Source: a virus
Direction: 5' to 3' (one strand)
Length of the DNA: 64,000 nt
Virus record (IMG/VR): IMGVR_UViG_3300002835_000050
Location: 1-64,000 of that record
The translations under genes were made by a program, and so were the position numbers. The notes under the pieces were generated by a model. The model had not been told where the DNA came from. It did no database searches and worked only from the letters and a program-made list of their open reading frames with translations. This document shows, piece after piece, positions 1,497 through 28,252 of this stretch (positions within the stretch are counted from its first letter, which is position 1; every line of letters starts with the position of its first letter).

Positions 1497-2615
1497 ATGG
1501 CTAAGAAAACTGTAAAAAGAAACACCGTACCACCAATTGATCTTTCAACTAGTATGATGTTTAAGAATAATCCAAAAGTTGTTAAACCTACAGTTAGTAA
1601 ATCTAAAACTGTTAAACCTACTGGTGTAACTAGAAAGGCTACAGAAGATCCTAATTATAGAAATTTACAGAATAAATTAAATGCTCGTGTAGTTTATGAC
1701 TATGAAAAAAAGAAAACTCCAGAGTCAAAAAAATCTGAAAGCAAAACTGTAACTAAAGCTCCAGCTAAAACTGTATCTCAAATTTGGAAAGAAAAAACAG
1801 GTAAAGATTGGTCAGAAGCTAAAAAATTAGGATTGTCTGATGGGTCAGCTTCTTCTAATATGGCTTTATTGAAAAAACTTAATTCAGGTAGTTTAAGTAA
1901 CTCAGACTTAAGTTCATCAAAATTTAAAGAAGTTGGTACATTAGAGCCAAAAAAAGCAACTGAAATATCTACAACTAACAATAATACAACAATGAAAAAA
2001 GGAGGATCTATTAAAAAGATGGCAAATGGTGGTGTAACACCAAGTGACAGTACAAAAATTTATGTAAAGAAAGCTGAAAAAGCTCTAGGTGCAGGAGACA
2101 TGAAAAAAGGCAAAAAAGCCTTAAGTGATGCTGCACGTCAAGGGCTGAAAGGTAAAGCTGGATTTGATGAATTAGGTAAGTGGAAGTATAAAACAGGTGG
2201 CACTAAGACTTCTAAACTTAAAGAAGGTATTAAATCAACACCAGGTGCTAAAACTGTTATTAAGGCTGTAAAATCAATGCCTGAATATAAAGCTTATAAA
2301 GCAGTTGGTAAAACTGCAAAAAGTATTGATGATAGTATAGAAAAAAGATATCCTAACTATACAGGTAAAGGATCTATGTATGATGGAGCAAAACAAGCTG
2401 CTAAAACTTTATTAGGTTATAAAACTGGTGGTATGGTAAATTCTAATGCAAAAGTTACTGCATCTAAAGTTGCTAAAGGTAGACCTGCTAAATCTGCTGA
2501 ACCAAGAACTGCAGCTAAAAAAGCTACAGGTAAAGTAGGTGGAGTTTCTAAAGCTCCAAAAGCGGCTGCACCAAAAATGAAAATGGGTGGTAGCATGAAA
2601 AAGAAAAGTTGTTAA
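1497..2615 (+). CDS. Lys-rich basic protein with repeated MKKGG/YKTGG motifs (putative internal/DNA-condensing virion protein)
   Basis: Very Lys/Ala/Ser-rich; MKKGG, MANGG, YKTGG x2, MKMGG. Confidence 0.55.
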   Translation: MAKKTVKRNTVPPIDLSTSMMFKNNPKVVKPTVSKSKTVKPTGVTRKATEDPNYRNLQNKLNARVVYDYEKKKTPESKKSESKTVTKAPAKTVSQIWKEKTGKDWSEAKKLGLSDGSASSNMALLKKLNSGSLSNSDLSSSKFKEVGTLEPKKATEISTTNNNTTMKKGGSIKKMANGGVTPSDSTKIYVKKAEKALGAGDMKKGKKALSDAARQGLKGKAGFDELGKWKYKTGGTKTSKLKEGIKSTPGAKTVIKAVKSMPEYKAYKAVGKTAKSIDDSIEKRYPNYTGKGSMYDGAKQAAKTLLGYKTGGMVNSNAKVTASKVAKGRPAKSAEPRTAAKKATGKVGGVSKAPKAAAPKMKMGGSMKKKSC

Positions 2616-2616
2616 T

Positions 2617-2955
2617 ATGCCAAAAGATGCTTGTTATACAAAAGTAAAAGCACAGTATGCTGTGTTTCCTTCAGCAAGAGCTTCACAAGCAATTGCTAAA
2701 TGTAGGAAAGGTTCTGGTATTGTTAGAAAAACAAAAGCTGGAACAGACTTAAAAAGATGGCAATCAGAAAAATGGCAAGATACTAAATCAGGAAAAGCTT
2801 GTGGTGCCGGTGGTAAAAATGAATACTGCCGGCCAACAAGAAGAGTATCTAAGGATACACCAAAAACAAAAAGTGAATTAACACCTTTTAAACTAGCTGC
2901 TAAAAAAGCTGAAAAGTCTAGAGTAGGAATGGGAAGAAGAGTTAAAAAAGTATAG
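2617..2955 (+). CDS. Small basic Cys-containing phage protein (DUF5872-like)
   Basis: DACYxKVKxxYxVFPSA...LKRWxxEKWxD...YCRP pattern recalled from phage hypothetical proteins. Confidence 0.5.
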   Translation: MPKDACYTKVKAQYAVFPSARASQAIAKCRKGSGIVRKTKAGTDLKRWQSEKWQDTKSGKACGAGGKNEYCRPTRRVSKDTPKTKSELTPFKLAAKKAEKSRVGMGRRVKKV

Positions 2956-2957
2956 TT

Positions 2958-3467
2958 ATGGCAGGTAAAGTTAAATTTTCTACAGGTAATGAAAAACATG
3001 TAGTTTATAAAAAAGCTACTAAAAAAGGTGAAGGTAAAGTTGGTGACATTATGGTTAACCATACAAACAAAAACAAAGGTACATATGATACTATTAGTTT
3101 AACCAGAACTGCAAATGCTAAGACTGTAAAACAAGGTGTTTCTGCTGAAAAAAATTGGCACAAACAAAATGATAAAACACCTAAAATGAAAACTGGAGGA
3201 TCTACACCTGCATGGACGAGATCAGAAGGAAAGAATAAAACTGGTGGTTTAAATGCTAAGGGTGTTGCTTCTTATAGAGCTGCAAATCCAGGTAGTAAAT
3301 TAAAGATGGCTGTTACAACTAAACCATCTAAATTAGATCCAGATAGTAAAGATGCTAAGAGACGCAAGAGTTTTTGTAGCAGAATGTCTGGGGTATCTGG
3401 TCCTATGAAGGATGAGAAGGGAAGACCTACAAGAAAAGCATTAGCTTTAAGAAAATGGAACTGTTAA
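2958..3467 (+). CDS. Basic two-module protein with C-terminal DUF6321-like domain
   Basis: PAWTRSEGKNKTGGLNAKG...RRKSFCSRMSG...GPMKDEKGRPTRKALALRKWNC, preceded by MKTGG. Confidence 0.6.
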   Translation: MAGKVKFSTGNEKHVVYKKATKKGEGKVGDIMVNHTNKNKGTYDTISLTRTANAKTVKQGVSAEKNWHKQNDKTPKMKTGGSTPAWTRSEGKNKTGGLNAKGVASYRAANPGSKLKMAVTTKPSKLDPDSKDAKRRKSFCSRMSGVSGPMKDEKGRPTRKALALRKWNC

Positions 3468-3480
3468 ATTTATTTATATT

Positions 3481-4365
3481 ATGAAAAAGTGTATGAAATG
3501 TGGAGGTTCCACAAAAATGGCTAAAGGTGGTACTGTATCAAAACCATTTGCTGCTGGTATTCCTTATGCTTCTGGTGCTGGTGCAACAGATGGTAAAAAC
3601 GGAATGATGAAAAAAGGTGGTGCTGTTAAAAAAGCTTTACCTAAAGCTCAAGATGGGAAAACTGTTAAAAAAGTTGGTCCTAATAAATATGCTAAAGATC
3701 AAGTAATTGTAAATAAAAAAGATGGTTCTTCAGCTTCATATGTTGCAACAAATAAAGGAACTGTATATTCTACAAAAAATAAAAAAAATGGTCCAGCAGA
3801 TGTTTTAAGTATTGATACAACAGGTTACTCAAAAGGTAAACCAAATTATGATCAAATTTATACAGGAAATGCGGGTTATAACAAAAGTACTGTAAAAAGA
3901 AAAGATGTTAAACCTTTATTAAAATCTATGAAAAAAGAAACATTAAGTTTTAAAACTGGTGGAATAACTAAAGGTGGTGTATCTGGTGAAGAACTAAGAA
4001 ACCGCGGAATTGATATGAAATACAATGGTATAGATTTAAAAGATGCTGGTACTTACCAAAAAGAACTTGGTAGAGAAATGAAAGCTGTTGGTAAAGGTTC
4101 AAAAGCTAGAGGAATGGCTATGAAAGAAAAAGGAAAAGCTTTAAAACAAGAAGCTCTTGATAAATTAAGACCTAGAAAAGTAACACAAAATTTAATGATT
4201 AATCCTGATAAAAGATCAATGTCAGCAACAGGACCAAAACCTATGATGGCTAAAAAAGGAGGAGCTGTTAAAAATGCTAAGTTAGCTGCACTTGCCGCTC
4301 CAAAAAATAAAATCACTAGAGCTGATGTTATTGTAGGTGCTAAAAGAAATGCTAAAAAGAAATAA
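3481..4365 (+). CDS. Lys-rich basic protein with repeated GG motifs
   Basis: MKCGG, MAKGG, MKKGG, FKTGG, AKKGG; C-terminal LAALAAPKNKITRADVI module. Confidence 0.55.
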   Translation: MKKCMKCGGSTKMAKGGTVSKPFAAGIPYASGAGATDGKNGMMKKGGAVKKALPKAQDGKTVKKVGPNKYAKDQVIVNKKDGSSASYVATNKGTVYSTKNKKNGPADVLSIDTTGYSKGKPNYDQIYTGNAGYNKSTVKRKDVKPLLKSMKKETLSFKTGGITKGGVSGEELRNRGIDMKYNGIDLKDAGTYQKELGREMKAVGKGSKARGMAMKEKGKALKQEALDKLRPRKVTQNLMINPDKRSMSATGPKPMMAKKGGAVKNAKLAALAAPKNKITRADVIVGAKRNAKKK

Positions 4366-4367
4366 TC

Positions 4368-4610
4368 ATGGCAACAACTAGAGCTGTAAAAACTTCTTGT
4401 AAAAATACAAAAGTTAGATCTGCAAGCGGATCATGTGTTAGTGAAAGACCATCAATGAAAAAAGGTGGAGTTGTCAAAGATAAGAAGTGGATTCAAAAAG
4501 CTATTAACCCAGCTCATAAAGGATTTTGTACACCGCTTACTAAAAAAACTTGCACACCAAAAAGAAAAGCTCTTGCTATTACTTTAAAAAAAATAGCTAA
4601 AAAGAAATAA
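4368..4610 (+). CDS. Small basic protein (MKKGG followed by KKWIQKAI module)
   Basis: 80-aa ORF tightly packed between neighbours. Confidence 0.55.
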   Translation: MATTRAVKTSCKNTKVRSASGSCVSERPSMKKGGVVKDKKWIQKAINPAHKGFCTPLTKKTCTPKRKALAITLKKIAKKK

Positions 4611-4613
4611 GAC

Positions 4614-5312
4614 ATGCAAAACAGTGTACTTACAATAAAGATTAAACAAAGGCTAAATAAATTAGATAGCAATGACTATGACAACATAGAATGCTGGCAA
4701 GTTGTGGAGGCATTTAATAAAGCCCAAGTTGAGTGGTCTAGAAGACAACTTCATGGAATCAATCTTGTTAAAGAAGGAGATGAACAATCTACCAGAAGAA
4801 AAGATGATTTACAGGTCTTGTTAAGAACACATGACTTAGTACTTGCAAATAAAGATTATTACTTTAGAGCTCCTCTTCCATTAGACTACATGCAATGGAA
4901 AAGAGTAGATGCCTATGCTAAGAAAGACTGTTGTGACAAAAGAAGAATGACTGTTTATCTTGCTGAAGAAGGTAATCTTAATCAACTCTTGAGAGATAAA
5001 TCTAAACAGCCAAATTTTGAATGGTCAGAAACATTTGCTACTTTAATAGATAATACAGTTCATATTTATACTAATAATGACTTTGATGTAGAATCAGGAG
5101 ACTTAGTATATTATAGACAACCTGTTAAAATTCAAATTCAAGGATGTGTAGACCCATATACTGGACAAGCTTCTCCTGTAAATGTAGACTCAGAGTTTAA
5201 AGATGATATAGTAGAATTAATAATAGATGAAGCAGCTGCTATATTAGCTGGAGATATTGAGTCAGGAAACCAATTCTCTAGAGGTACAGAAGGTGCAGAA
5301 CGCAATAACTAA
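4614..5312 (+). CDS. Putative head-tail ring/adaptor protein
   Basis: RLNKLDS...FNKAQ, LPxDY, YYRQP, helical C-terminus (ELIIDEAAAILAGDIE), typical of crAss-like ring proteins. Confidence 0.55.
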   Translation: MQNSVLTIKIKQRLNKLDSNDYDNIECWQVVEAFNKAQVEWSRRQLHGINLVKEGDEQSTRRKDDLQVLLRTHDLVLANKDYYFRAPLPLDYMQWKRVDAYAKKDCCDKRRMTVYLAEEGNLNQLLRDKSKQPNFEWSETFATLIDNTVHIYTNNDFDVESGDLVYYRQPVKIQIQGCVDPYTGQASPVNVDSEFKDDIVELIIDEAAAILAGDIESGNQFSRGTEGAERNN

Positions 5313-5314
5313 TT

Positions 5315-5833: not shown

Positions 5834-5834
5834 T

Positions 5835-5865
5835 TTTGTTAATTCAAAAAGTTTTGTTATATTAT
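5835..5865 (+). promoter_or_regulatory. Putative late promoter (TTTG-N19-TATATTAT)
   Basis: TTTG at 5835, TATATT at 5858; the motif recurs before other late genes. Confidence 0.55.
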
Positions 5866-5899
5866 AGTATATTATATTATTAACTAAAAAAAAAATAAA

Positions 5900-13451: not shown

Positions 13452-14033
13452 ATGAAGGAATTTAAAAAACCAGATGTAAAGGCTCCTAGATTTAGACCTG
13501 AAATAAAAAATGTTCTAGATAAAGAGTTTTTTAAATTATTTAAAAGTAAGTATCCTAAGTACAAAGACTTAGATGAAGTTTTGATTAGAACTGTTATTAA
13601 GAAGTTTAATCAAACAGTTTATCAGACAGTAATAGAAACAAGGGATGGGGTTCAATTACCAGAACAAATTGGTTGGCTGTTCATCGGAACATGTCAACAA
13701 AGTGTAAAAGAAAATATTGATTACTCAAAGTCATTGAAATATGGAGTAAAGGTAACTAACAAGAACTGGGACTCAGATGGTAAATTAGCTAAAATCTTTT
13801 TTTCCAATCATGCCCCAAAGCACAAAATAAAGAATAGAGAATTTTGGAGCTTTGTAGCATGTAGAGAATTTAAGAGAGCGGTTGCTAAAACATATCCTGA
13901 GAACTGGCAAATGTATATAGCTGCTGATCCAAAAACTAAAATACAATGGGCATACAGTAGATCAGTTTATAAAGAAATGAAAGCTAAGGAAACAACCAAG
14001 GCTTTACAAAATTATAATGAATTTGACTTATGA
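13452..14033 (+). CDS. HU/IHF-like protein of the crAss-like tail module
   Basis: Helix then GVQLPEQIGWLFI beta-hairpin (HU-like VxLxGFGxF); basic; lies upstream of ring/muzzle genes as in crAss-like phages. Confidence 0.55.
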   Translation: MKEFKKPDVKAPRFRPEIKNVLDKEFFKLFKSKYPKYKDLDEVLIRTVIKKFNQTVYQTVIETRDGVQLPEQIGWLFIGTCQQSVKENIDYSKSLKYGVKVTNKNWDSDGKLAKIFFSNHAPKHKIKNREFWSFVACREFKRAVAKTYPENWQMYIAADPKTKIQWAYSRSVYKEMKAKETTKALQNYNEFDL

Positions 14034-14692: not shown

Positions 14693-15792
14693 TGGATTAT
14701 AATTACACATTGCGCTATAGAACATTTGACCAGATGCTGGAAGATGTTACTATTGATTTAAATACATTTGCTTTAGAGAATATGATTGAGCCTCAACAGC
14801 TTATCAAATTAGCTAAGAAGATTAATTATGATTTAGGTCTTAGAATTAATCAGACTAAAGAAGTAGCTTTAGATGTGTGTCATGGTAGAGTAAAATTACC
14901 AGATGATTTCTATACATGGAACTTTGGTTTAGTTTGTGGAGAATATGTAGTTAATACAGGTTATGGTGGTGCTGCATCCGGAACTAATATACAAGAAGTT
15001 CCGTATGTTGAGACTCCTTCTACAGTAGACTTATGTGCTCCTATAACAGTTAACTGTGCGGTATGTAATGCAAATCCTTGTAATCATACAGCAGCTTGTC
15101 CAGGAAACACATGTTCTTCAACGTGTCCATCTCCTACAATACCTGATGCATATGATCCAAATAATCCATATGGTGATACATGTATCCGTCCTAGAGTTTT
15201 CATGAACTGTAAAGGAGATAAATATGAATTAATACAAGTTATTAACCCTACTCAAACAAGAGTGTATAGAAGTCTTGTTCCATTAAGAATGGCAGTAGGT
15301 CAGGGCGTAGAACCAGGTTGTCCTAATATAAATGTAAATGTTGCTAACTCAGGTTTTATTAGAGGAGGTTTCCTATTTACTAATTTTCAAGAAGGTACCG
15401 TGTATATAAATTACCAAGGTCAAATGGAAGATGACAATGGGAACTTAATGGTACCTGATCATGATCTATTGAATGAGTATTATGAATATGCATTGAAGTT
15501 AAGAATCTTAGAAAACTTATATTTGAATGGGGAAGATGTAGCACAAAAAATGGGATTGATAGAACAAAGATTAAAAGCTGCTAGAAATCAAGCACTTAGT
15601 TTAGTTAATACTCCTAACTTTAGAGAGCTATATGATATATGGTGGACTAATAGGAGAGCACAGAATTCTAAATACTATGATATGTTTAATTCATATATTC
15701 CAGAAAATGCCCGTCCACAGAATCCAAATAATACAAGAGTAGTTGGATCAGGAAATGGACATGGATTTAACTCAAGAGGCACAGGTAGATAA
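14692..15792 (+). CDS. Tail ring/tubular protein with Cys-rich insertion
   Basis: VKLPDDF, FTNFQEGTVYINY, DDNGNLMVPD motifs; synteny. Confidence 0.55.
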   Translation: MDYNYTLRYRTFDQMLEDVTIDLNTFALENMIEPQQLIKLAKKINYDLGLRINQTKEVALDVCHGRVKLPDDFYTWNFGLVCGEYVVNTGYGGAASGTNIQEVPYVETPSTVDLCAPITVNCAVCNANPCNHTAACPGNTCSSTCPSPTIPDAYDPNNPYGDTCIRPRVFMNCKGDKYELIQVINPTQTRVYRSLVPLRMAVGQGVEPGCPNINVNVANSGFIRGGFLFTNFQEGTVYINYQGQMEDDNGNLMVPDHDLLNEYYEYALKLRILENLYLNGEDVAQKMGLIEQRLKAARNQALSLVNTPNFRELYDIWWTNRRAQNSKYYDMFNSYIPENARPQNPNNTRVVGSGNGHGFNSRGTGR

Positions 15793-15794: not shown

Positions 15795-18700
15795 ATGGCA
15801 GGTAAGATACAAAATACATCACAGAATATTAACCATAGTTTTACTAAAGGGTTAAATAAAGATTCAGATCCTTCTTTTGTACAAGATGGAATGTGGACAT
15901 ATGCACGTAATGCAGTAAACAATACTGTAGAAGGAGATCTAGGAGCAATCTCAAATGAGACTTCTAATTTTTTATGTGCTACAACAGGATCTACTATGCC
16001 TCCAATAGCAATCAAAAAATATATTATTGGTGCTATACAAGTTTATTCTGACAAGTGGTTAATATTTACAGCAGGTCATAATTCAAAAGGGCAACCTGTT
16101 AATTCTGAAATAGGACTATTAGAAGAAGAAAGATGTATCTATAGACCTATTGTTCAAGACTCTTGTTTAGGTTTTGATAAAAGATATTTAATATCTGGAG
16201 TATCTAGAGAAAAAGAAGATTGTACATGGCAAGTATATTTTGCAGATGGTTTAAATCCTGATAGATATCTTAATATTGGAGATCCTCAGACATGGCCTTC
16301 AAGTGGATATACTTGGATGGGAACAACAGCTGATATGAATTACTATACTAACGGTATAGATAAAATTCTTTGGCCTGGTGTACGTTGGAAAGAATTATGT
16401 AGTGACTCATTTGGAGTAACACAAACAACTCCTGGAGTTTGGCCAACAGGTAGTCCACAAGGATGTATAATTTGTAAAGACTTAAACTCATTAGATTGTG
16501 ATAAGATTAGATTAGCAAGACTAATGACTACACCCTGTCTTAAATTACGTCCAGGTTCATCTGGTGGTACTCTAAGAAATGGAACATATTTTGCTGTTAT
16601 AGCTTATACTATTAAAGGACAAAAAGTAACAGACTATTTTTCTCCAAGTAATACTCAACCTTTATGGACAGTAAATGATTCTGAAAGTTCACTTACACTT
16701 ACAATAGAAGCAGACTTTGTTAACTTTGATGAGTTTGTATTAGTGATAGTACAAAATATTAATCAAGGAACCGTTGCAAGACAGATTGGTACATACTCAA
16801 CTAAAACTACAAGAATTGAATTAGATCAGATAAAGGAAGATCTTATTACAGTTCCTACAGAGTTTTTACCAATACAAACTCCTGTATTTGAAAAGTCAGA
16901 TCAAATTGCTGAAGTAAATAATTACTTGCTTAGAGTAGGACCTACTTCTAAGTTTGATTTTAACTACCAACCATTAGCTAATTTAATTAAAGCTAAGTGG
17001 GCTTCAGTAGAATACCCAGCTGATTATTATGTGAAAGGTGGTTGGAAAGGAAGTTACTTAAGAGATGAAGTATATGCATTCTTTATCCGTTGGGTATATG
17101 ATACAGGAGATAAATCTTCATCATACCATATTCCAGGAAGAGCTCCTTCAACTTATACTTTACCTACATCAGGTAACTCAGTAGGAGAACTATTACTTAT
17201 ACCTAATGATCAAAATGCATTAGCTCCTGATGATCAAGTATTTGATGTATACAATACAGCAAGTGTTGATCCAGGCTCAACTTTAGTAAATACTGTATTA
17301 GAAGATGGAGGTAAGATTCTTGAAGTAGGTACTATGGGTTACTGGGAATCAACGGAAACATATCCTGATAATCAAGATTTTATTTGGAATGCTAGTTCAC
17401 ACTGCTGGACAGGAAAACAAAATTCTCCAAGTCAAGTATATGATCTATGTGGTTTACCAATAAGACATCATAAGTTTCCAGATAACTGTTTAAGCCCAAA
17501 CACTACACATTTTAAAAGTAATCCTAATTCATCTACACAAGGTGACTTGTTGAATATTAGAATTATGGGTGTATACTTTGAAAATATTATAACACCAAAA
17601 GATAATGAAGGTAATGAAGTAACAGGTGTTGTTGGTTATGAAATATTAAGAGGTTCTAGAGAAGGTAACAAATCTATCATTGCAAAAGGAATGATTAACA
17701 ATGTTAGAACTTATGCTATTAAAGGATCTGCAGCAAGAGGAAGAACAGGTATTTATCCTAACTATCCTTTTAACACAATTAAACCATTAAATAATATTGG
17801 TAGTAACGGTCAGGGTAACTATAATCTTAATGATCCTTATATTAGAATGACACCTACAGGATCAAATACTATAATAAATCAAACTATTCCTAAAGATATT
17901 GTTACTTTCCATTCACCGGATACAATGTTTAGAACACCTTTCTTATCTACTACAGAATTAAAACTCTATGGTTCTTTGTCAGGTTATTCTACACAAAACT
18001 TTCAGGATCCAGCTGAGCATCCTAAGTTTAAATTATTATCTGATTTTGTTATATTACCAATGTTCATGGTAGGTCTTGCTGAAGCAGTTGTATCTATCAC
18101 AGGTAAAAGAACAATGAATACATTAAGCCAACAAGATGTTTCTGCAGCATATGATACAAACTTATCAACTGTACCAGGAGTAGGAAATTCTCCAAGTTTA
18201 GTAGCTATTCCTCAACTAGCTGCTGCTAACGCAGCTATTAGTGTATATAATACAGCTGTAGAACTTTATTATAATTCAGCAGGAGGTTTATTTTTAGATG
18301 CTTTTGCTGTTATGTTTGGAGGTATTGATTCAAGTGTTCAAGCAATTGCTCAATCAACTTTACAATCAACATTAAATGGTATTGCTCTTTCAGGAACTTC
18401 TGGTTTAGGATATATTCCTTCTTTTACAGGTACTATTGAATATCCTTCTTATGCATATCTTCCTGGATTATTAAGAGCATTAGGGGGTATTAATCAATTC
18501 TTGTTTTATTTTGCTGAAGGGGCCAATACAAGTTTAGATTTTATTAATGCTATGCTACCATATGAGCAATTTGGAATGCAGTCACTTGCTCATGGTTTTT
18601 ATAGTGCTATGACTCCAGAAAATACTAAGACTGATATTGTTAGATTTAGAACTCCAGATAGTTTTTACATTAGAGATAATATTCAAGAAATCCCTAAATA

Positions 18701-21266
18701 TCAAGATAGTACAGGAACATATTATTCTTACTCAATTAATAATTTAAAAAGATCAGATGCTGTTACAGTAAGAACTGTAAATGGTAAAGGTGTAAGTACA
18801 GGTCCCGTATTTCTTAATACAGATAAATCTTTAGTTACATTAGGATCATTAATGAAAGCTGCCGTTAATTCAGAACCTGGTATATTACCTGGAGAAAAAC
18901 CAAGTTTTACAAATATTGATATTCCTTTTAGTTTACCAATTGCTAGTCATTATGGGGGACTAAAAGTTAGATTAAGAAATCAATATGGTCAATTACAAGG
19001 TATTAAACAAATTCCAATTACGCCTTGTGAACAAAAAATTGGTTCAGCGGATAATGCTTTTATAAGTCTTAATACAGGTCTAGTATGTCCTAGTATTACT
19101 ACAACTCCTGGAAGTGTTGTAATTAATACAGTATTAGCAAGTACACCAATATTCTTTGGAGGAGATACCTTTATAAATAGATACACAGAGAAAAATACTT
19201 TCTTTTATTTCTATGATTGGTTATTTGGTCAACCAGATGGATTTGAATATAACTACTATCAACATCAAATGATTCCTTCACCTAGATTTGCTGTAAACAA
19301 TATTAGATATGATGTTGGCGATATGGCAAGTGGTATTACAGATATATCAGCTCCCCCTGCACAAGGTACAGGAGCACTACCCTCTTCATTTTATAATTTA
19401 GATTGGGAAAACTATCACTATGAGGATGATGACCCAGGAGATTATCCAGGATTGTTTGGTGCAACAAGATGTAAATTTTATTTAGCTAATTCATCTGTAA
19501 GAGACTTTTTTGTTGAATCTGATGTATTAGTTGACTTTAGACAACAAGGTCTTGAGGAAGGAGCTAAACACTATGATCCATATAGATATACAAACTATCC
19601 GGCAATGTTTAATATGAATCCTCAAATTATTACAAGAGGTAATGAATATAGATATGATTACTCATTAAGTATATCCAAAGCATTTACTCAGTATTTTTCT
19701 CAAGGATCTTTACAAAGTAGATACTATGATCCTAATGTAGCCAAGTTATGTTATACATATTATCCTGATAGAATTTACTATTCACTACAACAACAGAATG
19801 AATCATTTAAAGATAGTTGGTTTGTTTACTTACCAAATAACTATAATGAATTTAAGTCTCAAGTCAGTGGAGTAAAGTCTATTAATAAAAGTGGTTTGTT
19901 TATTACTTTTAAAAATGATAGTCCATTAATGTACCAAGGTGTTGATACACTTCAAACAGATTTAAGTACTAAGATTACTATTGGTGACGGAGGTTTATTT
20001 AGTCAACCAGGACAATCTGTATCTAATGCAGATAAACCCTATGAATATGGATCATCTCAAAGTAGACTAGCTGTTATTTCTACACCTGCTGGATTATTTT
20101 ATATGTCTGAGAATCAGGCTAAGATATTTAACTATTCAGGTGGCTTAAAAGAAATTTCACAAACAGGTCTTAAGTGGTGGTTTACACTATTCTTACCATA
20201 TAAGTTAACTGATGATTTTCCAGATTATCCATATCAAGATAATCCAGTAGCTGGTATTGGTTGTCAAGCAATGTATGATAATACTAACTCTATTATTTAC
20301 TTTACTAAAAAAGATTATAAAGTAAAAGATGAATATAAAGGATTAGTAACATATGTACCTCTAATTACTTTTGGAGCATTAAAAGGACAAGGAGATTACT
20401 TTGTTTTAGATGGTAAAGGAAAATATTTAATTGGTGATCCAATGATATTTGAAGATGCTTCTTGGACATTAAGTTATGACCCTAAGAATGAATTTTGGAT
20501 TAGTTATCATGACTGGCATCCAGATTTATCTATGCCTACTAAGTCATACTTTATGACAAGTAAAGAAAATACTATTTGGAAACATAATTATGTTTGTGAC
20601 AGCTACTGTAACTACTATGGACAGAATTATCCATTTGAAGTTGAGATACCAATTATTACAGGTGAAACAGTTACTACATTAAAATCTGTTCAGTACATTC
20701 TAGAGTGTTATAAAAGAGATAGTTATAACTGTGTAGATCAGTTTCAAGTACTAGACTTTAACTTTGATAAAGCTGTAGTCTATAATATGGAACAAGTTTC
20801 TGGATACCTTAACTTAAATATATTCCCTAAGAATAATATCACATTAAGTTTAGAATATCCAAAACCACGTCCAGGTATAATTATTGAACCTAATGTACAA
20901 CCATTACCAGGATTTGATATCTTATTTTCTAAAGAAGAAAATAAATACAGATTTAATCAGTTCTGGGATATTACAAGAAACAGAGGAGAGTTTCCAAATG
21001 GAGCTGGTTATCCACCACAAGGTACATTAGTACCAGGAACAACAGTGCTTGCAGGTAATTATACTCAAGAGTACTTATGGGTAACACAATCAAATGGTTA
21101 CATTAAAACATTGAATCCAAATAATATGGATATTGCAAAACCATTACTTCAAAGAAAGAAGTTCAGACATTATCTAAACTTTTTAAATTTAAGAAAAGAT
21201 GTGTCAGGAGATGTCAATATGATATTGAAATTAACAAGTACTAAGAATCAATTATCCAATAGATAA
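15795..21266 (+). CDS. Tail stabilization/muzzle protein (P22 gp10-like)
   Basis: 1823 aa; N-terminal FTKGLNKD...YARNA; GYWESTETYP...IRHHKFP; WTLSY...WISYHDWHP near the C-terminus. Confidence 0.75.
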   Translation: MAGKIQNTSQNINHSFTKGLNKDSDPSFVQDGMWTYARNAVNNTVEGDLGAISNETSNFLCATTGSTMPPIAIKKYIIGAIQVYSDKWLIFTAGHNSKGQPVNSEIGLLEEERCIYRPIVQDSCLGFDKRYLISGVSREKEDCTWQVYFADGLNPDRYLNIGDPQTWPSSGYTWMGTTADMNYYTNGIDKILWPGVRWKELCSDSFGVTQTTPGVWPTGSPQGCIICKDLNSLDCDKIRLARLMTTPCLKLRPGSSGGTLRNGTYFAVIAYTIKGQKVTDYFSPSNTQPLWTVNDSESSLTLTIEADFVNFDEFVLVIVQNINQGTVARQIGTYSTKTTRIELDQIKEDLITVPTEFLPIQTPVFEKSDQIAEVNNYLLRVGPTSKFDFNYQPLANLIKAKWASVEYPADYYVKGGWKGSYLRDEVYAFFIRWVYDTGDKSSSYHIPGRAPSTYTLPTSGNSVGELLLIPNDQNALAPDDQVFDVYNTASVDPGSTLVNTVLEDGGKILEVGTMGYWESTETYPDNQDFIWNASSHCWTGKQNSPSQVYDLCGLPIRHHKFPDNCLSPNTTHFKSNPNSSTQGDLLNIRIMGVYFENIITPKDNEGNEVTGVVGYEILRGSREGNKSIIAKGMINNVRTYAIKGSAARGRTGIYPNYPFNTIKPLNNIGSNGQGNYNLNDPYIRMTPTGSNTIINQTIPKDIVTFHSPDTMFRTPFLSTTELKLYGSLSGYSTQNFQDPAEHPKFKLLSDFVILPMFMVGLAEAVVSITGKRTMNTLSQQDVSAAYDTNLSTVPGVGNSPSLVAIPQLAAANAAISVYNTAVELYYNSAGGLFLDAFAVMFGGIDSSVQAIAQSTLQSTLNGIALSGTSGLGYIPSFTGTIEYPSYAYLPGLLRALGGINQFLFYFAEGANTSLDFINAMLPYEQFGMQSLAHGFYSAMTPENTKTDIVRFRTPDSFYIRDNIQEIPKYQDSTGTYYSYSINNLKRSDAVTVRTVNGKGVSTGPVFLNTDKSLVTLGSLMKAAVNSEPGILPGEKPSFTNIDIPFSLPIASHYGGLKVRLRNQYGQLQGIKQIPITPCEQKIGSADNAFISLNTGLVCPSITTTPGSVVINTVLASTPIFFGGDTFINRYTEKNTFFYFYDWLFGQPDGFEYNYYQHQMIPSPRFAVNNIRYDVGDMASGITDISAPPAQGTGALPSSFYNLDWENYHYEDDDPGDYPGLFGATRCKFYLANSSVRDFFVESDVLVDFRQQGLEEGAKHYDPYRYTNYPAMFNMNPQIITRGNEYRYDYSLSISKAFTQYFSQGSLQSRYYDPNVAKLCYTYYPDRIYYSLQQQNESFKDSWFVYLPNNYNEFKSQVSGVKSINKSGLFITFKNDSPLMYQGVDTLQTDLSTKITIGDGGLFSQPGQSVSNADKPYEYGSSQSRLAVISTPAGLFYMSENQAKIFNYSGGLKEISQTGLKWWFTLFLPYKLTDDFPDYPYQDNPVAGIGCQAMYDNTNSIIYFTKKDYKVKDEYKGLVTYVPLITFGALKGQGDYFVLDGKGKYLIGDPMIFEDASWTLSYDPKNEFWISYHDWHPDLSMPTKSYFMTSKENTIWKHNYVCDSYCNYYGQNYPFEVEIPIITGETVTTLKSVQYILECYKRDSYNCVDQFQVLDFNFDKAVVYNMEQVSGYLNLNIFPKNNITLSLEYPKPRPGIIIEPNVQPLPGFDILFSKEENKYRFNQFWDITRNRGEFPNGAGYPPQGTLVPGTTVLAGNYTQEYLWVTQSNGYIKTLNPNNMDIAKPLLQRKKFRHYLNFLNLRKDVSGDVNMILKLTSTKNQLSNR

Positions 21267-22357
21267 TGACTAATAAAAAAGTTCTATCCAAAGCTGTATC
21301 TGAATTAGATAAAGCAAAGGCTCCGGCAAAACCTAAAGATATAATCACTGATCCAATGGGTCAGTGGAAATATCCTGGACAAGTTACCAGAATACCTTCT
21401 GATAATATAACAATGCAAGGTGTTAATTATCCAGTATGGGCACAACCTAATATAGGCCCTGGTATGATGATGCAACCAGGTCAAGATTACATGTTTCCAG
21501 AAGCTGATTATGTAGATGAATATCCTCAAATGAAAAGAGGAGGGTCTAAAAAAAATAAAAAGTATACTAGGAATATTACTGCTCTTAATAAACTTTTTGC
21601 TGAAAACTATTTATTTAAAAAACCAGGTAAGAAACAAATCTATGATCCTAATACTCCACTATTTGAAGATGGAGGATATATTGAAGAAGACATATCTGTA
21701 CCTTCATTGCAAAATAATGTATTTGCTCCAGGTGGTGTTGTAGATCTTAATCCTGAAACAATGAAAAAATATCTTGCTGCTTTAAAGGTACAAGAGAATA
21801 ATGAAAATACAGGACTTAGAAAAAATAAATGGTATCCTTATCCAAGTTCTGAAAAAGGAACTGATACAATTGCTTATGGTCATAAATTATTACCAGGAGA
21901 ACAAAAGTATTATGAAGGCATAACTACACAACAAGCTGAAGCTTTAGCAAGAAAAGATGTATTAGAAAAACAAGAATCTGCTAAAGGACGTATTGATAAA
22001 AAATATGGTAAGGGTACATTTGATAAGTTACCACAGGATGCTCAAATGTTATTAGTTGATTATCAGTATAATGTAGGTTTACAAAAGTTTCCTAAATTTG
22101 TAGAAGCTGTAATAAAAGGTGATAAGCCTACAATGCTAAAAGAATATGAAAGAACTTCTGATGTAGGTAAGTTAACTAAAAGAAATAATTGGACTAAAGA
22201 GGTTATTGACAACTTAGAATATCCTGTAATTAAAAAACCAGCAAAAGCTAAAGTTGCAAGTCTAGAATCTGAAAATGATTATACAGAAGCAGAACTAACC
22301 CCAGAAGAAATAGAGTGGTATAAATCACAAGGTTATATAGTAGAAGAACTTGATTAA
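21266..22357 (+). CDS. Virion-associated lysozyme (T4/GH24-like domain) with N-terminal accessory module
   Basis: LKVQEN...YP..EKGTDTIAYGHKL...FDKLPQDAQMLLVDYQYNVG..KFPKFVEAVIKGD. Confidence 0.65.
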   Translation: MTNKKVLSKAVSELDKAKAPAKPKDIITDPMGQWKYPGQVTRIPSDNITMQGVNYPVWAQPNIGPGMMMQPGQDYMFPEADYVDEYPQMKRGGSKKNKKYTRNITALNKLFAENYLFKKPGKKQIYDPNTPLFEDGGYIEEDISVPSLQNNVFAPGGVVDLNPETMKKYLAALKVQENNENTGLRKNKWYPYPSSEKGTDTIAYGHKLLPGEQKYYEGITTQQAEALARKDVLEKQESAKGRIDKKYGKGTFDKLPQDAQMLLVDYQYNVGLQKFPKFVEAVIKGDKPTMLKEYERTSDVGKLTKRNNWTKEVIDNLEYPVIKKPAKAKVASLESENDYTEAELTPEEIEWYKSQGYIVEELD

Positions 22358-22414: not shown

Positions 22415-25400
22415 ATGAAAAAAAGAGTAAGATTATATAAGGCACAAGAAGGTGGTACACCTGATGTCAATATGTTAAGTTACCCAGGTGCTCAAGCGCA
22501 ACAATCTGATGAAGGATCCAATGATCAATTAGTATCTATGATATTAAGTGATATTGGTAATTCTTTATCTAAAGATCAAATTGTAGGTAAGTTAGTTACT
22601 GTATTTAATACAGATCCAAATGAAGCAAATCAAATTGTAGATCAAGTTTTTAAATATGTAGAACAACAAAAACAATCTGAGATAGAAGCTGCTGATGATG
22701 AGGACAATGAAGAAGATGTTCAAGAAACTGTTGTAGCTGAAGAAGAAGTTGTAGAAGAACCTGAAAGTAGAGGACAGACTGGTACTCAAATGTCTAATGA
22801 AATAATTGATGAATGGGATGATTCATCTGCTGATGATACAGAATTTTCTTCAAATTTAGTTATGCAGTATGGTGGTTATCCAATGGCACAAGAAGGTATG
22901 GAAGTACCAATTCAAATGCCAGATGTAAGTTCTTACTTGCCTCAAGATATGGCTGATTATTTAGGAGGAACAACTAATCCTTATTCAGGTTTAGCATGGA
23001 ATTCTCCAGATCAAACAGAAAATATAGTAGAGGATGAAGAAGTATTTTCTGATTATACTGAGCCAGAATTACCTGAAGAAAGATTTGGTGGTATGCCAAG
23101 TAAAAGAAGTTATGTAAATTCTGTTCTTAAGTTGGTTAAGAAACAAATGGGTGGTGATAGTGCTGCTCCAGAATCTGCTAAATATGATGATGACAATGCT
23201 GATCCAACAGGTGCTAATGTAAGAAAGAAAGCATTAGATAAATTTATTGGATCTGTTAAGAATCAATCTGGTATGGCTTTAGCTAAACAACAAGCAGAGC
23301 AACAGTATGAACAAATGATGCAACAGCAAATGGCTATGCAACAATATCCTATGGCTCAACAAGGAGGAGAACAAGATACTGAAAATCCAATGCATCATCT
23401 ACAAGCATTTTCTCAATCTATGAACAATGTTTTTGATGATCAACAAAATGAATTAGTACAAGCTCAATTTGGTGGTTTATTTGGTAGAAGAAGAATGAAT
23501 AACATGATGCAACAAGGTATGCCTATGATACCTGGAATGCCTCCTATTACTAAAATTGATGTAAGAAAATCAGGTTGGTTATTTAATAGACCAAAAGAAT
23601 ATTCAATTGAATTTGGTGCATATAGTCCAATGCCTGGAATGAGTCCACAAGGATTACCACCTCAAGCATATGGTTATAGTACAAGAACTATTAAAACACC
23701 TGCTAAAAGAATTAAAGTAGAAACAACAGCTGAAGTAGTTAATAATGAAGCTATTAAAGAAGTATCTGCTGCTACTCCTACATCTGATGCAACTACAAAA
23801 GCAGCTGATGCCCCTGTTACAACTACAACTCCAGTAACTACAAGTACGGGCACTAAAAATGTTCCTATAAAAGTAAATCCAAAAGTTGTAGATAAAATTA
23901 AAACAGATAATAAAGTAAATAGTAAAAATACTAAAGATGGTATTTATGCATATGGTACTGCAGATGGTACATACAAAAAACAAAATGGTATTTGGTATGT
24001 AAACCGTGGTGTTAAAACAAAAATGCAGTACTTACCTATAACTGATCAAAGAAGAATTAATGAGTTAAATAAAAAAGCAGATTATAAAGGAGAGGCTAGT
24101 AAACAAGAAGATGGTAAGTTTACTATGCAAAATCCTTTTGGATATAATCCTGCTATAGATCCTCGTACAGGTAACTATAGACCAATGAGTGCAATTGCTG
24201 ATGATGACTTTGTACAAACAGCAGCTTTTTTAGGCGCAGCTGGTAGAGTAGGAAGCGGAACTGCAGATGTCTTAGAACAATTTACATTTAAAAGACCAAC
24301 TAACCTTTTAGGTAAAGGAAGAAACATGGTTAATCCAGGACAACCTATGTTAGGACCAGGACAACCTATGCTTAATCCAGGTCAAGGATTAATTAATCCT
24401 CCTGGAGGTTTTCAATATGCTTTACCATTTCAAGAAGGTGGTGTAGTAGATAATCCTTTTGCAGATGAGTATGGTAATCTACAACAATTTATTGGTGGTG
24501 GAGATGAAGATATTACACAAGGAGATTTAGATGATGTTTATTCTAAAGATACAGCTAATGGAGATTTTCCTATGGCTCAATGGGGTGGTGTAATAGAAGC
24601 TTTATTTCCTGCTAATATTATGCCTAGACGTTATGGAAGAGGATATTCTCAAATGGTAGGTTCACCTTATGATCCTAGAACTAAGATGGCTATGCCTAAT
24701 TTTATGCCAGGACCTGGAGCGCATCTTAATAAAATTGATGTAACTAAATCAAATTGGTTAACAGGAGCTCCAAAGAAATATACTGTAACTTATGGTCAAA
24801 CTATGGCAGGTCCAAGAAATCAGCCAGGTTTACCTAACTCAGGGACTAATACTCCTCAGACTCAAATGAGAAACTCTAAGAGAACTGATATTCCTGATGA
24901 TTTAAGTTTAGCTGCTAAAATGGCTATTAACAGAGGTGATAGACAAACTGCTAGAAATGATAGAAGATTAGCAAGACATCCTGAGTATTTAGAATCTCCA
25001 TTTACTCCTGAACAACAAGAAGCTAGAAAGTTATTTAAAAAAGTAACTGGTCCTAAAGAACCTGTTAAACCAGGAATGACTGATGAGCAATTACAACAGT
25101 TTAACCAAGCAGTTAGTAATTCTGCAGGAGTACCTGGATATAATGGACAGTTTCAAAGAGGTGGTGATTTACAAAGATTTATTCCCCAAGCTCAAACAGG
25201 TATGCAAAATCCTGTAAGTTATGCTAATAATCCTGCAGTAGCTAATGTAACTCAAAATTATTTTGATAAAAACAATCAAGCTAAACCAGGTGACTTTACA
25301 GATATTTTTGCAGACTATGCTAGAGCAAATAAACAAGATGCTTCTGGTGGTTATGAACAAGAGACTGCCGTAGATTACAAAGCTAAAAAAGCTCCTGGAT

Positions 25401-26062
25401 CATTTGATGGAGAAGCAATGGTTAATACAATCAATGCTGGTGTACAAGGTGTAACAGGATTAATTAACAGAGCTCAAGATCAAAAAGCTGAAGCTAAAAT
25501 GCAAGAGAATCTTACAGCAGATAACTTATATGCATCTGATCCTAGCAAAGACCGTGGAGACTATGATACTAACTCTGGTTTATACAGATTAGATGAGATG
25601 GGTCAAAAATGGAATAGCCGTTCTAAACAATATGGTGGAGATATCTATCAAGATGGTGGTCAGAAAGCTAGATTTTATGATACAGCTATTGGTGAATATA
25701 ATCAATGGTTAGCTACTCCTGCAGCATGGCAAGAAGATCCCGAGATGTTAGCTCCAGATGGTAAAAATTTAAACTTATGTTTAGATTGTATGGATGTAGA
25801 TTGGAACAGTGAGCAAGATATAAGAGATGCTCATAAACTAATTGAAGAGGGTTACTCAACAGGAACTCACAGAAATCAAGAAGTATTTAATACAGCTTTG
25901 AAAAAATATGGATTAGAAACACCTCAGTACAGTTCTAAAAAAGCAGTATCAAAAAAACAATTTGGTGGAAATATAGGATATACTGAAGGTGATGAAGTTG
26001 ATATGACTGAAGAAGAAATAGCAGACTTTATTGCTAACGGAGGTGAATTAGAATATTTATAA
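22415..26062 (+). CDS. Low-complexity internal (cargo) virion protein with many AQxGG/QxGG motifs
   Basis: 1215 aa, acidic and Gln/Met/Pro-rich; lies between muzzle and vRNAP genes. Confidence 0.55.
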   Translation: MKKRVRLYKAQEGGTPDVNMLSYPGAQAQQSDEGSNDQLVSMILSDIGNSLSKDQIVGKLVTVFNTDPNEANQIVDQVFKYVEQQKQSEIEAADDEDNEEDVQETVVAEEEVVEEPESRGQTGTQMSNEIIDEWDDSSADDTEFSSNLVMQYGGYPMAQEGMEVPIQMPDVSSYLPQDMADYLGGTTNPYSGLAWNSPDQTENIVEDEEVFSDYTEPELPEERFGGMPSKRSYVNSVLKLVKKQMGGDSAAPESAKYDDDNADPTGANVRKKALDKFIGSVKNQSGMALAKQQAEQQYEQMMQQQMAMQQYPMAQQGGEQDTENPMHHLQAFSQSMNNVFDDQQNELVQAQFGGLFGRRRMNNMMQQGMPMIPGMPPITKIDVRKSGWLFNRPKEYSIEFGAYSPMPGMSPQGLPPQAYGYSTRTIKTPAKRIKVETTAEVVNNEAIKEVSAATPTSDATTKAADAPVTTTTPVTTSTGTKNVPIKVNPKVVDKIKTDNKVNSKNTKDGIYAYGTADGTYKKQNGIWYVNRGVKTKMQYLPITDQRRINELNKKADYKGEASKQEDGKFTMQNPFGYNPAIDPRTGNYRPMSAIADDDFVQTAAFLGAAGRVGSGTADVLEQFTFKRPTNLLGKGRNMVNPGQPMLGPGQPMLNPGQGLINPPGGFQYALPFQEGGVVDNPFADEYGNLQQFIGGGDEDITQGDLDDVYSKDTANGDFPMAQWGGVIEALFPANIMPRRYGRGYSQMVGSPYDPRTKMAMPNFMPGPGAHLNKIDVTKSNWLTGAPKKYTVTYGQTMAGPRNQPGLPNSGTNTPQTQMRNSKRTDIPDDLSLAAKMAINRGDRQTARNDRRLARHPEYLESPFTPEQQEARKLFKKVTGPKEPVKPGMTDEQLQQFNQAVSNSAGVPGYNGQFQRGGDLQRFIPQAQTGMQNPVSYANNPAVANVTQNYFDKNNQAKPGDFTDIFADYARANKQDASGGYEQETAVDYKAKKAPGSFDGEAMVNTINAGVQGVTGLINRAQDQKAEAKMQENLTADNLYASDPSKDRGDYDTNSGLYRLDEMGQKWNSRSKQYGGDIYQDGGQKARFYDTAIGEYNQWLATPAAWQEDPEMLAPDGKNLNLCLDCMDVDWNSEQDIRDAHKLIEEGYSTGTHRNQEVFNTALKKYGLETPQYSSKKAVSKKQFGGNIGYTEGDEVDMTEEEIADFIANGGELEYL

Positions 26063-26071
26063 TATACAACT

Positions 26072-28252
26072 ATGAAAGTAAGAATTAAAAAAATTCCACA
26101 AGCAAGAACAGGGTACCAAGTTAAAGGTGCTTTAGTTAATGATGTGCCAGCTTTTGGTGGAGCAGATTATAACGCATATATTGGAAAACCAAATGCAAAA
26201 GCTTCAAGAACTTTAACTGCTGTTCCAAGAGAAGAAGCAAATCTTGAGGCAGAAGGAGGAGAAACTGTAGTTGGTAATCTTGATGGAAGCATGATGCCTT
26301 CATTTAAAACAATCAAAGGCCCAAGACATACTAATGGAGGTGTTCCATTAAATTTGCCAGATGATAGTTTTATCTATAGTGATACTAAAGATATGAAGAT
26401 TAATGATGCTCATATTTTAAAAATGTTTGGTAAGCCTGCTAAAAAAGGTGGCTATACTCCAGCAGAATTATCTAAAAAGTTTGATATCCAAAAGTATAGA
26501 GAGATATTACAAAATTCTGATTCTGATAAAATTGATAGAAAGACTGCAGAGTTAATGATTAAAACATATACTCTTAAGTTAGGAGCTTTAGCATTAGCGC
26601 AAGAATCTAAAAAAGGATTTCCACAAGGTATTCCAGAAATTGCTAAACCATATATGGAAGCAAATGATATTAAAGAAGAAGATTTAATACCACAAGAATA
26701 TCAAGAACAACAGGAAAGCATGCAGTATGAGCAATCAGAGAATCCTATGATGCAACAAATGGAAGGAGCAAATGAAGCTCCTATGCAGATGCCAAATGGT
26801 GAAGCTGTTGCAATGCCTCAAGAGATGTCAGAAATGTCGCCAGAGATGATGCAAGGAGCTCCTATGGCTATGTATGGAATGCAGATGGGTGGTTATGCTT
26901 TACCTTTCTATGATGATCCTAATGAAATGGCATATGGTGGCAGTTTATATAAAGCTGCAAATGGTGTTACTACAGGAGATCCTAAAGTATCTACTAGTGG
27001 AAGAGCACTTACTCCTGCTGAATTAGAAGAAAGAAGAAAAAAACAAGAAAAGATTAGAACTCAAAAAGGAACAACAGCTCCTGAAGGATATACTAAACTT
27101 GCAGATGGGACTTATGCTAAAGGTACTATGCGTGAAGGTGAAGTTAAACCTTTACAACCAAGACAAAAAATAACTAAACAAACTACTAATCCTGCACAAT
27201 ATAAAAAAGATATATGTGCTAAAATAAAAAGTTCTGGATATACCGCTGATCAAGCTGCTCAAATGGGATGGATTGATAAAAGTAGAGTTGGAGAATTTAA
27301 AGGTTGTGAAGGTGCAAAAAAATCTGAAGAAGAAGTTGACTTTTTAAAATTAGAAGAAGAACCTGGTACTGAAAGATGTGAATGTACTAGAAAAGATGGT
27401 ACTACATATGATCCAGGTAAAAATGATGATGATAGTTGTAAAGACTGTGAAGAAGCTATGTCAGTTCAAGAAAATAAAATGTCTTTTAAAGGTCAACAAA
27501 AACAACCTGCTGCATGGTGGTTACAGGATACTGTAAATACTATGGGTGCATTTGGTGATATGATGAGAACTAAGAAATATATGCCATGGGAAGCAAGAGT
27601 TGATCTTGAAGAACCAAGACCTACATTCTTAGATCCTACAAGAGAGTTAGCTGCACAATCTGAGCAAGCAAATATTGCTTCTCAAGCTGCTGCATCTTTT
27701 GCTGGACCTCAAGCTTTAAATGCTAGACTTTCTCAAATACAAGGACAAGGTGCTAGAGGAGCTGCTGATACTTTATCTAAAATAAATAATCAGAATGTAA
27801 ACATTGCTAATCAGTTTGAAGCTAATCAAGTTGGTGTAAGAAACCAAGAGAATATGTTGAATCAGCAAATGGCAAACAGAGTCTATGACAAAAATGTTGT
27901 AGCTAATCAACAATTTGATAATGCTAAAACTGCAGGTAGAGCTAACATGCGTCAAGCATATAATACAGCTCTTACTAATAGAGCTAAGACAGATGCTATG
28001 AATCAGTTATATCCTAACTATCAAGTTGATCCAAGTACAGGAGGTATGGTTAATTATACACCAACTGTAAAGAAAGCTGATCCAGGAGCTAAAGAAATGG
28101 ATGAATTTGAATACATGAATAAACTTAGAAAAAGTGGATTTTCAGATAAAGCTGCTGTTGATGCAATGAAAAGAAAGTTTGGTAGACTTGGTGGTCAAAT
28201 GTTTGAACATGGAGGATTTGTATACTCAGTTTTTCCTGTAGTATCACTATAA
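26072..28252 (+). CDS. Internal cargo protein
   Basis: NLEAEGGE...GPRHTNGGVP...FIYSD N-terminal module typical of crAss-like cargo proteins; Gln/Asn/Ala-rich coiled C-terminal region. Confidence 0.6.
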   Translation: MKVRIKKIPQARTGYQVKGALVNDVPAFGGADYNAYIGKPNAKASRTLTAVPREEANLEAEGGETVVGNLDGSMMPSFKTIKGPRHTNGGVPLNLPDDSFIYSDTKDMKINDAHILKMFGKPAKKGGYTPAELSKKFDIQKYREILQNSDSDKIDRKTAELMIKTYTLKLGALALAQESKKGFPQGIPEIAKPYMEANDIKEEDLIPQEYQEQQESMQYEQSENPMMQQMEGANEAPMQMPNGEAVAMPQEMSEMSPEMMQGAPMAMYGMQMGGYALPFYDDPNEMAYGGSLYKAANGVTTGDPKVSTSGRALTPAELEERRKKQEKIRTQKGTTAPEGYTKLADGTYAKGTMREGEVKPLQPRQKITKQTTNPAQYKKDICAKIKSSGYTADQAAQMGWIDKSRVGEFKGCEGAKKSEEEVDFLKLEEEPGTERCECTRKDGTTYDPGKNDDDSCKDCEEAMSVQENKMSFKGQQKQPAAWWLQDTVNTMGAFGDMMRTKKYMPWEARVDLEEPRPTFLDPTRELAAQSEQANIASQAAASFAGPQALNARLSQIQGQGARGAADTLSKINNQNVNIANQFEANQVGVRNQENMLNQQMANRVYDKNVVANQQFDNAKTAGRANMRQAYNTALTNRAKTDAMNQLYPNYQVDPSTGGMVNYTPTVKKADPGAKEMDEFEYMNKLRKSGFSDKAAVDAMKRKFGRLGGQMFEHGGFVYSVFPVVSL

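Follow-up and report, generated by a model that had tools for sequence, protein, structure and literature searches.

What does a short Gly-Gly peptide do when it recurs at the domain borders of otherwise dissimilar phage proteins? The question arises in IMG/VR record IMGVR_UViG_3300002835_000050, a 114.5-kb crAss-like phage contig that is 96% complete, of which we analysed the first (left) 64 kb, hereafter the window. Seven late open reading frames (ORFs, named by their first nucleotide) share the motif Phi-[K/Q/A]-x-G-G, where Phi is mostly Met, Tyr or Phe. Four of these carriers (ORFs 1497, 2958, 3481 and 4368) lie in a hypervariable block with 18-24% Lys between a gp33-like gene and a ring-protein gene, and three (ORFs 21266, 22415 and 26072) sit after the muzzle gene, the position of the cargo genes gp45/gp46 in crAss001. 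We confirm that the motif marks joints between exchangeable modules in these proteins. Crassviruses are among the most abundant phages known, and their protein cargo, which amounts to several megadaltons, is loaded, ordered and ejected. To our knowledge, neither a maturation protease nor a signal that targets cargo has been reported in these phages, and no description of the motif was found in the literature searched.

An earlier, sequence-only reading had listed [MFYA]-x-x-G-G pentapeptides in the seven ORFs. All of them are present where listed, and they are enriched over background, over composition-keeping shuffles and over the rest of the proteome; the seven ORFs were chosen post hoc, and 80 independent relatives give the same profile. 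Met, Phe, Tyr or Ala stands at position -3, three residues before Gly-Gly, in 27 of 44 sites (background 0.19, binomial P ~1e-9), and Met alone in 12 of 44 (background 0.042, P 2e-7). The corresponding counts in the genome's other 135 ORFs are 11/87 and 2/87 (Fisher 1.5e-8 and 3e-5). Gly-Gly pairs are denser in the carriers, at 1.37 vs 0.27 per 100 amino acids (aa) elsewhere. Position -2, an unspecified residue in the earlier pattern, is Lys, Gln or Ala in 34 of the 44 sites and belongs to the motif. Protein by protein, the shuffles give P <= 0.003 for ORFs 1497, 3481, 21266 and 22415 and ~0.02 for ORFs 4368 and 26072; ORF 2958, with its single copy, is not significant. Gly-Gly contexts are at background in the muzzle, in a 977-aa protein and in three giant proteins of the RNA-polymerase block.

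The relatives, drawn from IMG/VR, were compared over the stretch that runs from the gp33-like gene to the ring gene, which yielded 760 distinct Gly-Gly contexts. There the block is hypervariable, with 4 to 10 small genes and ~20% lysine. Position -3 is Met in 32% and Tyr in 12% of contexts (1.0 bit), position -2 is Lys, Gln or Ala in 70% (K 43%, Q 16%, A 11%), and Gly-Gly is followed by S/A/T at +1 and V/T at +2. Gly-Gly sites in neighbouring structural genes of the relatives lack this profile. The observation is real and more general than first stated. The motif's Gly codons vary synonymously, one junction occurring in 15 DNA versions, which indicates that selection acts on the peptide. A DNA-level signal, such as a recombination site, is ruled out because synonymous positions vary freely.

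The position of the motif is most telling where the same module exists both as a separate gene and as part of a fusion. Within the window, MKTGG (aa 77-81 of ORF 2958) stands upstream of DUF6321 (aa 91-167), MKKGG (aa 30-34 of ORF 4368) before the KKWIQKAI module that begins at aa 39, and FAPGG (aa 153-157 of ORF 21266) before the lysozyme fold, whose helix runs from aa 163. This is as the sequence-only reading had it, with the correction that NKTGG in ORF 2958 lies within DUF6321 itself. Among the relatives, 22 distinct separate DUF6321 genes start MAK[ST][PA]AW[TQ]R, and 14 of 14 distinct N-extended forms read ..[MY]-x-x-G-G-S-[ST]-[PA]-A-W, with the motif three residues before AWTR, behind at least five unrelated upstream sequences. 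Sixteen separate KKWIQKA genes begin at the module, and all 12 distinct fused forms have Phi/K-K-x-G-G-[SA]-T-(G)-D just upstream. DUF5872 starts MPKDACY when separate, and its one fused form (relative L066) reads KMSEGG/SKDACY, the slash marking the junction. In total, 27 of 27 distinct fused junctions of the three module families bear the motif, which is nowhere found in the separate genes. An unbiased mapping agrees: 166 of 387 gene starts (43%) fall within 4 residues of a Gly-Gly in the fused homologue vs 20% for random positions. Fused and split versions of the genes therefore have common module borders, and these coincide with the motif.

The cargo-position proteins place their motifs in a similar way. 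In the AlphaFold2 (AF2) model of ORF 21266, the predicted local distance difference test (pLDDT) score falls below 50 at aa 90-97 and 132-158, which contain all three motifs. These stretches separate well-modelled domains, namely a confident N-domain and the lysozyme. Homologues of this protein range from 179 to 2241 aa and have the N-domain in common. In 34 further relatives, the genes at the cargo position are just as rich in Y/M/F/A/K-[QKA]-x-G-G. Many cargo proteins terminate in an acidic helix-GG-strand handle, ELTPEEIxxYxxGGYIVEELD (window 22280-22357 and 25976-26062; L083:8001-9335), which itself contains a Phi-x-x-G-G core. Where the handle (ELTxEEIxxYxxGGYIVEE) is internal, a further motif lies within 4-13 residues, and then comes the next module.

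DUF6321 is common in marine phages, which allows the same boundary to be read in another lineage. In six T4-like cyanophages (L116, L119 and L121-L124), it is the last module of Lys-rich multi-module proteins. The cyanophage proteins with DUF6321/DUF5872 modules are 130-700 aa long and Lys-rich, and their genes lie mostly beside terminase genes. The residues before AW[TQ]R of DUF6321 are LPE/G, LGE/S, VSE/E, IDE/K, TNE/S and TNE/D, with Glu at P1 in 6 of 6 and L/I/V at P3 in 4 of 6, although these six sequences are related and hence not independent. The T4 prohead protease gp21 has sites of the type (L/I)-x-E. A different code at the same DUF6321 boundary in different lineages would be expected of a code read by each phage's own processing or loading machinery. 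Judged from their sequences, the cyanophage proteins look like processed head-internal polyproteins, seemingly unannotated. DUF6321 also occurs as a small separate gene in a T7-like cyanophage and in pelagiphage HTVC033P, both of which have small genomes. The split-versus-fused boundaries and the T4-type site of the cyanophages lend comparative support to a polyprotein interpretation.

So, is the motif a cleavage site? We propose that it is a junction code, placed at the joints of modules that can be exchanged independently, in proteins that are most likely loaded into the particle, with the Lys-rich ones presumably packaged too. It would serve two groups of carriers, the Lys-rich block in the head-gene module and the three proteins after the muzzle gene. 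That a putative protease cuts at the motif is our tentative choice among the explanations considered. Cutting would then release from fused proteins the modules that relatives make as separate proteins, and would also trim N-terminal leaders and short basic tails at the C-terminus, in processing akin to that by T4 gp21 and the adenovirus protease on internal and core proteins. In ORF 1497, the last motif, MKMGG, is followed by the tail SMKKKSC and the stop. Crassvirus cargo polyproteins have been called ‘likely cleaved’, and gp65 orthologues have a zincin-like protease domain (Drobysheva et al., bioRxiv 10.1101/2020.03.07.982082).

Several results weigh against cutting, and the first of them concern the enzyme. 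The sequence-only reading had suggested searching the rest of the genome for a Ulp1/C39/adenain-like or prohead protease, and none of these families was found with Pfam. The 114.5-kb genome has no match to Peptidase_C48 (PF02902), C39 (PF03412) or the prohead-protease types S77 (PF03420), S78 (PF04586) and ClpP (PF00574), and none to Peptidase_C5 (PF00770) at E <= 10. In the complete relative G001, the terminase is followed by a 916-aa portal, a 429-aa scaffold-like protein (acidic and helical) and the capsid protein, and no further gene lies among the last three, the place expected for a prohead protease. Set against G001, the present contig, which ends in window 1-378 on one side and genome 112086-114550 on the other, probably lacks the portal C-terminus, the scaffold-like gene and the capsid N-terminus, which would make up the missing ~4%. 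The gp33-like neighbour (467-1483) was considered and rejected as a protease because it has a RecA-C-terminal-like domain and no conserved Cys, His, Ser or Asp columns in 75 sequences. Autoproteolysis by N-O shift is ruled out, as Ser, Thr or Cys follows Gly-Gly in under half of the sites. Nor does the crAss001 literature report fragments by gel or mass spectrometry (MS), and the crAss001 papers make no statement on gp45 processing; the structure paper mentions neither motif nor processing (PMC10172136). Two candidate enzymes can be named. One combines a putative metallopeptidase domain, DUF2201_N, with a VWA-like domain, and a MoxR-type AAA+ ATPase is encoded next to it (genome 62983-65477, minus strand; L125); in favour of cutting, DUF2201_N occurs in 3 of 3 complete relatives that have the Lys-rich block and is absent from crAss001 and phi4:1, both without the block. 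The other comprises HExxH stretches in the giant proteins, including one at residue 176 of a 1936-aa protein, and these stretches have no Pfam peptidase match.

The proteins themselves add to the case against cutting. The tails of the cargo proteins after the last Gly-Gly are conserved ([FIL]-A-N-G-G-E-L-E-Y-L and F-x-x-G-G-F-V-Y-S-V-F-P), which suggests a structural handle. Tandem motifs favour a spacing of 9 residues (44 cases), which a protease site leaves unexplained. In crAss001 gp45, the portal-bound modelled domain (425-552) begins at A425-F-G-G, so this copy is not cut after Gly-Gly; it has Asn at -3 and is thus not canonical, and the canonical copies FAEGG (261-265) and FAYGG (559-563) lie outside both the model and the quoted MS peptides. 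Conserved tails, spacing and uncut AFGG are more easily reconciled with a structured handle than with a site at which the downstream part is cut off and lost. The tails and the ordered AFGG also keep alive the possibility that the motif is an uncut docking or packaging handle. Such a handle would bind a repeated site in the procapsid, portal or tail lumen, or pair by strand addition, and would load and order cargo and stay in the mature protein. Docking would require no protease, in keeping with the Pfam searches, and would account for the motif's restriction to cargo-position proteins and the head-module block, its presence in N-terminal leaders as well as tails, and the start of resolved gp45 segments at or just after A-Phi-G-G. 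However, separate DUF6321, KKWIQKA and DUF5872 genes, lacking the motif, would need another route into the particle, the motifs are unstructured in the AF2 model, the receptor is only hypothetical, and the cyanophage parallel points to a protease code. We consider docking possible, if on the doubtful side.

The absence of the motif from separate modules could also mean that it is needed only in fusions, as a passive hinge. In that case, Gly-Gly with its upstream anchor would be a flexible link allowing modules to fold, unfold and pass through the tail channel one by one. Predicted flexibility in the AF2 model is consistent with this, as is the view that crassvirus cargo traverses the tail partly unfolded (PMC10172136). 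A hinge, however, has no need of specific residues at -3 (1.0 bit) and -2, and it leaves unexplained the copies at residues 5-17 and those 4-9 residues from the C-terminus; this explanation appears improbable. We give least credence to a by-product without common function, whether it stems from Lys/Gly-rich composition, from start codons (M-K-K) left over at gene fusions, from translation starting internally or from basic proteins using it as a hook on DNA. Met is indeed the commonest residue at -3, M-[AK]-K resembles the N-termini of separate genes (MAKGGSTPAW vs MAKTPAW), and A-rich codons before ATG would make a plausible start context. But Tyr, Phe and Ala also occupy -3, composition-keeping shuffles fail to give the observed counts, the separate genes lack Gly-Gly, and acidic, Gln-rich cargo proteins, which could not act as DNA hooks, have the motif's core as well.

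Returning to the protease proposal, a wider version of it would hold that crassviruses have an unrecognised Gly-Gly-directed maturation system, whose enzyme would have no relation to the prohead proteases known so far. In the present aquatic clade, the system might chop Lys-rich polyproteins into small basic peptides and domains packed with the DNA, an independent counterpart of the adenovirus core (pVII, Mu and pVI/pVIc). We regard this as an unlikely extension. The junction peptide predicts exact N-termini that virion proteomics can check, and it defines module borders for cloning uncharacterised cassettes. It also points, in this clade, to a new class of Lys-rich, probably DNA-associated internal proteins. 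What is new is that the motif occurs in the Lys-rich head-module block and that split and fused genes agree on exact boundaries, together with the comparison with cyanophages and the search for enzymes.

Table. Motif carriers and neighbouring genes in the 64-kb window.
Feature	Position	Strand	Basis
Major capsid protein gene, C-terminal 125 aa	1..378	+	weak match to crAss001 gp32 C-terminus
gp33-like conserved protein, 338 aa; left border of Lys-rich block	467..1483	+	AF2 pLDDT 94.7
ORF 1497: Lys-rich protein, 372 aa, 21% K, 5 motifs	1497..2615	+	motif listing
ORF 1497 motifs	MKKGG 1992-2006; MANGG 2019-2033; YKTGG 2187-2201 and 2418-2432; MKMGG 2577-2591		
DUF5872 module as separate gene, 112 aa, without motif	2617..2955	+	Pfam PF19197, 1.1e-12
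ORF 2958: N-terminal extension, MKTGG (3186-3200), DUF6321 module	2958..3467	+	PF19846 at aa 91-167
ORF 3481: Lys-rich protein, 294 aa; leader MKKCMKCGG-STK-MAKGG and 3 further motifs (3607-3621, 3949-3963, 4249-4263)	3481..4365	+	motif listing
ORF 4368: N-terminal extension, MKKGG (4455-4469), KKWIQKAI module	4368..4610	+	fused and separate forms in relatives
Tail ring protein (gp34/35-like); right border of Lys-rich block	4614..5312	+	phrog_29507
Ring proteins R2 (14030-14692) and R1 (14692-15792)	14030..15792	+	CrAss_Ring_2 4.3e-21; CrAss_Ring_1 1e-9
Muzzle-like protein, 1823 aa, Gly-Gly sites at background	15795..21266	+	weak crAss001 gp44 match, 6e-4; position after R1
ORF 21266: first cargo-position protein	21266..22357	+	Pfam Phage_lysozyme
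ORF 21266 order: conserved N-domain, MKRGG, basic segment, FEDGG, FAPGG, lysozyme, acidic C-terminal handle	MKRGG 21530-21544; FEDGG 21662-21676; FAPGG 21722-21736		
ORF 22415: second cargo-position protein, 1215 aa; 11 x-Q-x-G-G motifs, leader MKKRVRLYKAQEGG, conserved end FIANGGELEYL	22415..26062	+	motif listing
ORF 26072: third cargo-position protein, 726 aa; AKKGG, MQMGG, MAYGG, FEHGG, then conserved hydrophobic tail FVYSVFPVVSL	26072..28252	+	motif listing

The surrounding genes leave little doubt about the kind of phage: the Crassvirales virion gene set is present, with a Crass_capsid-type major capsid protein and paralogous ring proteins (Pfam). The contig begins within the capsid gene, and the full 538-aa homologue of ORF 1-378 in relative L001 matches Pfam Crass_capsid at 7.5e-32. 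In the window, the capsid gene is followed by the gp33-like gene, the small Lys-rich genes (1497-4610), a ring protein, further structural genes, R2, R1 and the muzzle. After the muzzle come ORFs 21266, 22415 and 26072, then the 977-aa protein and the three giant proteins of the RNA-polymerase block; a 3603-aa ORF matches the crAss001 RNA-polymerase subunit gp47. By tblastn, ORF 4614-5312 matches an entry annotated ‘ring protein’ as well as MS-verified structural proteins of phi4:1. Between this gene and that of a 561-aa Ig-like-domain protein lies the gene of a 172-aa protein (5315-5833) with a Pfam DUF5856 assignment and a match to PHROG 858, whose annotation is starvation-inducible, Dps-like; such a protein is unexpected in a virion module. 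No close relative was found among cultured phages (megablast, tblastn); IMG/VR holds hundreds of relatives.

The gp33-like protein is conserved among crAss-like phages, and VIA-align likens its C-terminus to the C-terminal domain of RecA (Z 10.1, 61 residues). Its fold is common to uncharacterised proteins of phi14:2 and other crAss-like phages, and a Foldseek search against the PDB returned nothing significant. Its counterpart in phi4:1, gp063, lacks the MS-based structural annotation that its neighbours have, and gp33 goes unmentioned in the crAss001 structural atlas. The protein may be a non-virion assembly or DNA-handling factor.

For the carriers, PHROGs and Pfam gave nothing beyond DUF5872, DUF6321 and lysozyme, and ORF 3481 falls only into unnamed viral clusters in the protein atlas. 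The leader of ORF 3481 (3481-3531) is conserved in relatives as M-x(1-4)-C-M-x-C-G-G-x(2-4)-K-M-x-K-G-G, in which a CxxC pair accompanies two motifs ~9 residues apart. Terminal Cys residues recur in the block: ORF 1497 ends KKKSC (2601-2615), ORF 2958 ends RKWNC (3453-3467) and ORF 3481 starts MKKCMKC (3490-3504). In relatives L001-L080, 67 of 424 block ORFs end in Cys, vs 1.3% Cys overall. Beyond the window, genome 106134-106484 (L126:1335-1685) holds an eighth carrier, two genes downstream of an endolysin-like M15 peptidase with a 214-aa ORF in between. It encodes 116 aa with 18% Lys, FAEGG, a hydrophobic stretch and the end GMKKGGSVKKKK.

How does this system compare with known ones? The nearest in gene position are C1 (gp45) and C2 (gp46) of crAss001 (Bayfield et al. 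2023, PMC10172136), which are likewise encoded directly downstream of the ring and muzzle genes, ahead of the virion RNA-polymerase block, and are long, largely disordered proteins. Like the carriers, gp45 contains FAEGG, FAYGG and several x-A-[FY]-G-G, and each of its two resolved segments starts at one of these x-A-[FY]-G-G copies or directly behind it. Unlike here, where position -2 is mostly Gln or Lys, it is Ala in crAss001, which also has no Lys-rich block between gp33 and gp34. The carriers have no detectable sequence or crAss_CARG1 similarity to gp45/gp46. The genome has no match to crAss_CARG1 (PF25725) at E <= 10, ORFs 22415 and 26072 have no Pfam match at E <= 1, and BLASTP against gp45 415-560 reaches E 4.7 at best, a weak value; gene position alone agrees.

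The sequence-only reading was right that the seven late proteins share one peptide signal at module boundaries, but its likening of that signal to adenain, SUMO and C39 protease sites fails because of the register or the missing enzyme: the hydrophobic residue lies at P5, with K/Q/A at P4, and no C5, C48 or C39 domain is encoded. The adenain consensus is (M/I/L)-x-G-G/x, and the adenovirus core precursors include pVII, pX (Mu) and pVI. The adenovirus core resembles the present case in its basic substrates, here probably DNA-associated, in a hydrophobic residue upstream of Gly-Gly and in paired sites near the N-terminus. The short basic C-terminal tail of ORF 1497 with its nearby Cys (GG-SMKKKSC) recalls pVIc. 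However, the register is shifted by one residue, Peptidase_C5 is absent here, and the virus realm is unrelated. Unlike the SUMO-type Q-x-G-G sites of Ulp1/SENP, the motifs here lie in predicted disordered linkers and do not end a folded ubiquitin-like domain. The cargo-loading peptides of encapsulins are short, contain Gly, stand at cargo termini and dock inside an HK97-fold shell. They differ in consensus, and the motif here is mostly internal and absent from separate modules.

T4 prohead processing, with gp21, (L/I)-x-E sites and capsid-targeting leaders, offers a parallel in design: a short linear code marks the N-terminal leaders of head-associated proteins and the joints between their small modules. 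The T4-like cyanophages bring the comparison to a single boundary, since six of them have x-x-E before DUF6321 exactly where this phage has G-G. The T4-type code is Glu where ours is Gly-Gly, its S77 protease was not found here, and cutting in the cyanophages is itself presumed. The parallel suggests a general rule, by which small basic modules move between phage lineages and adopt the local processing or loading code.

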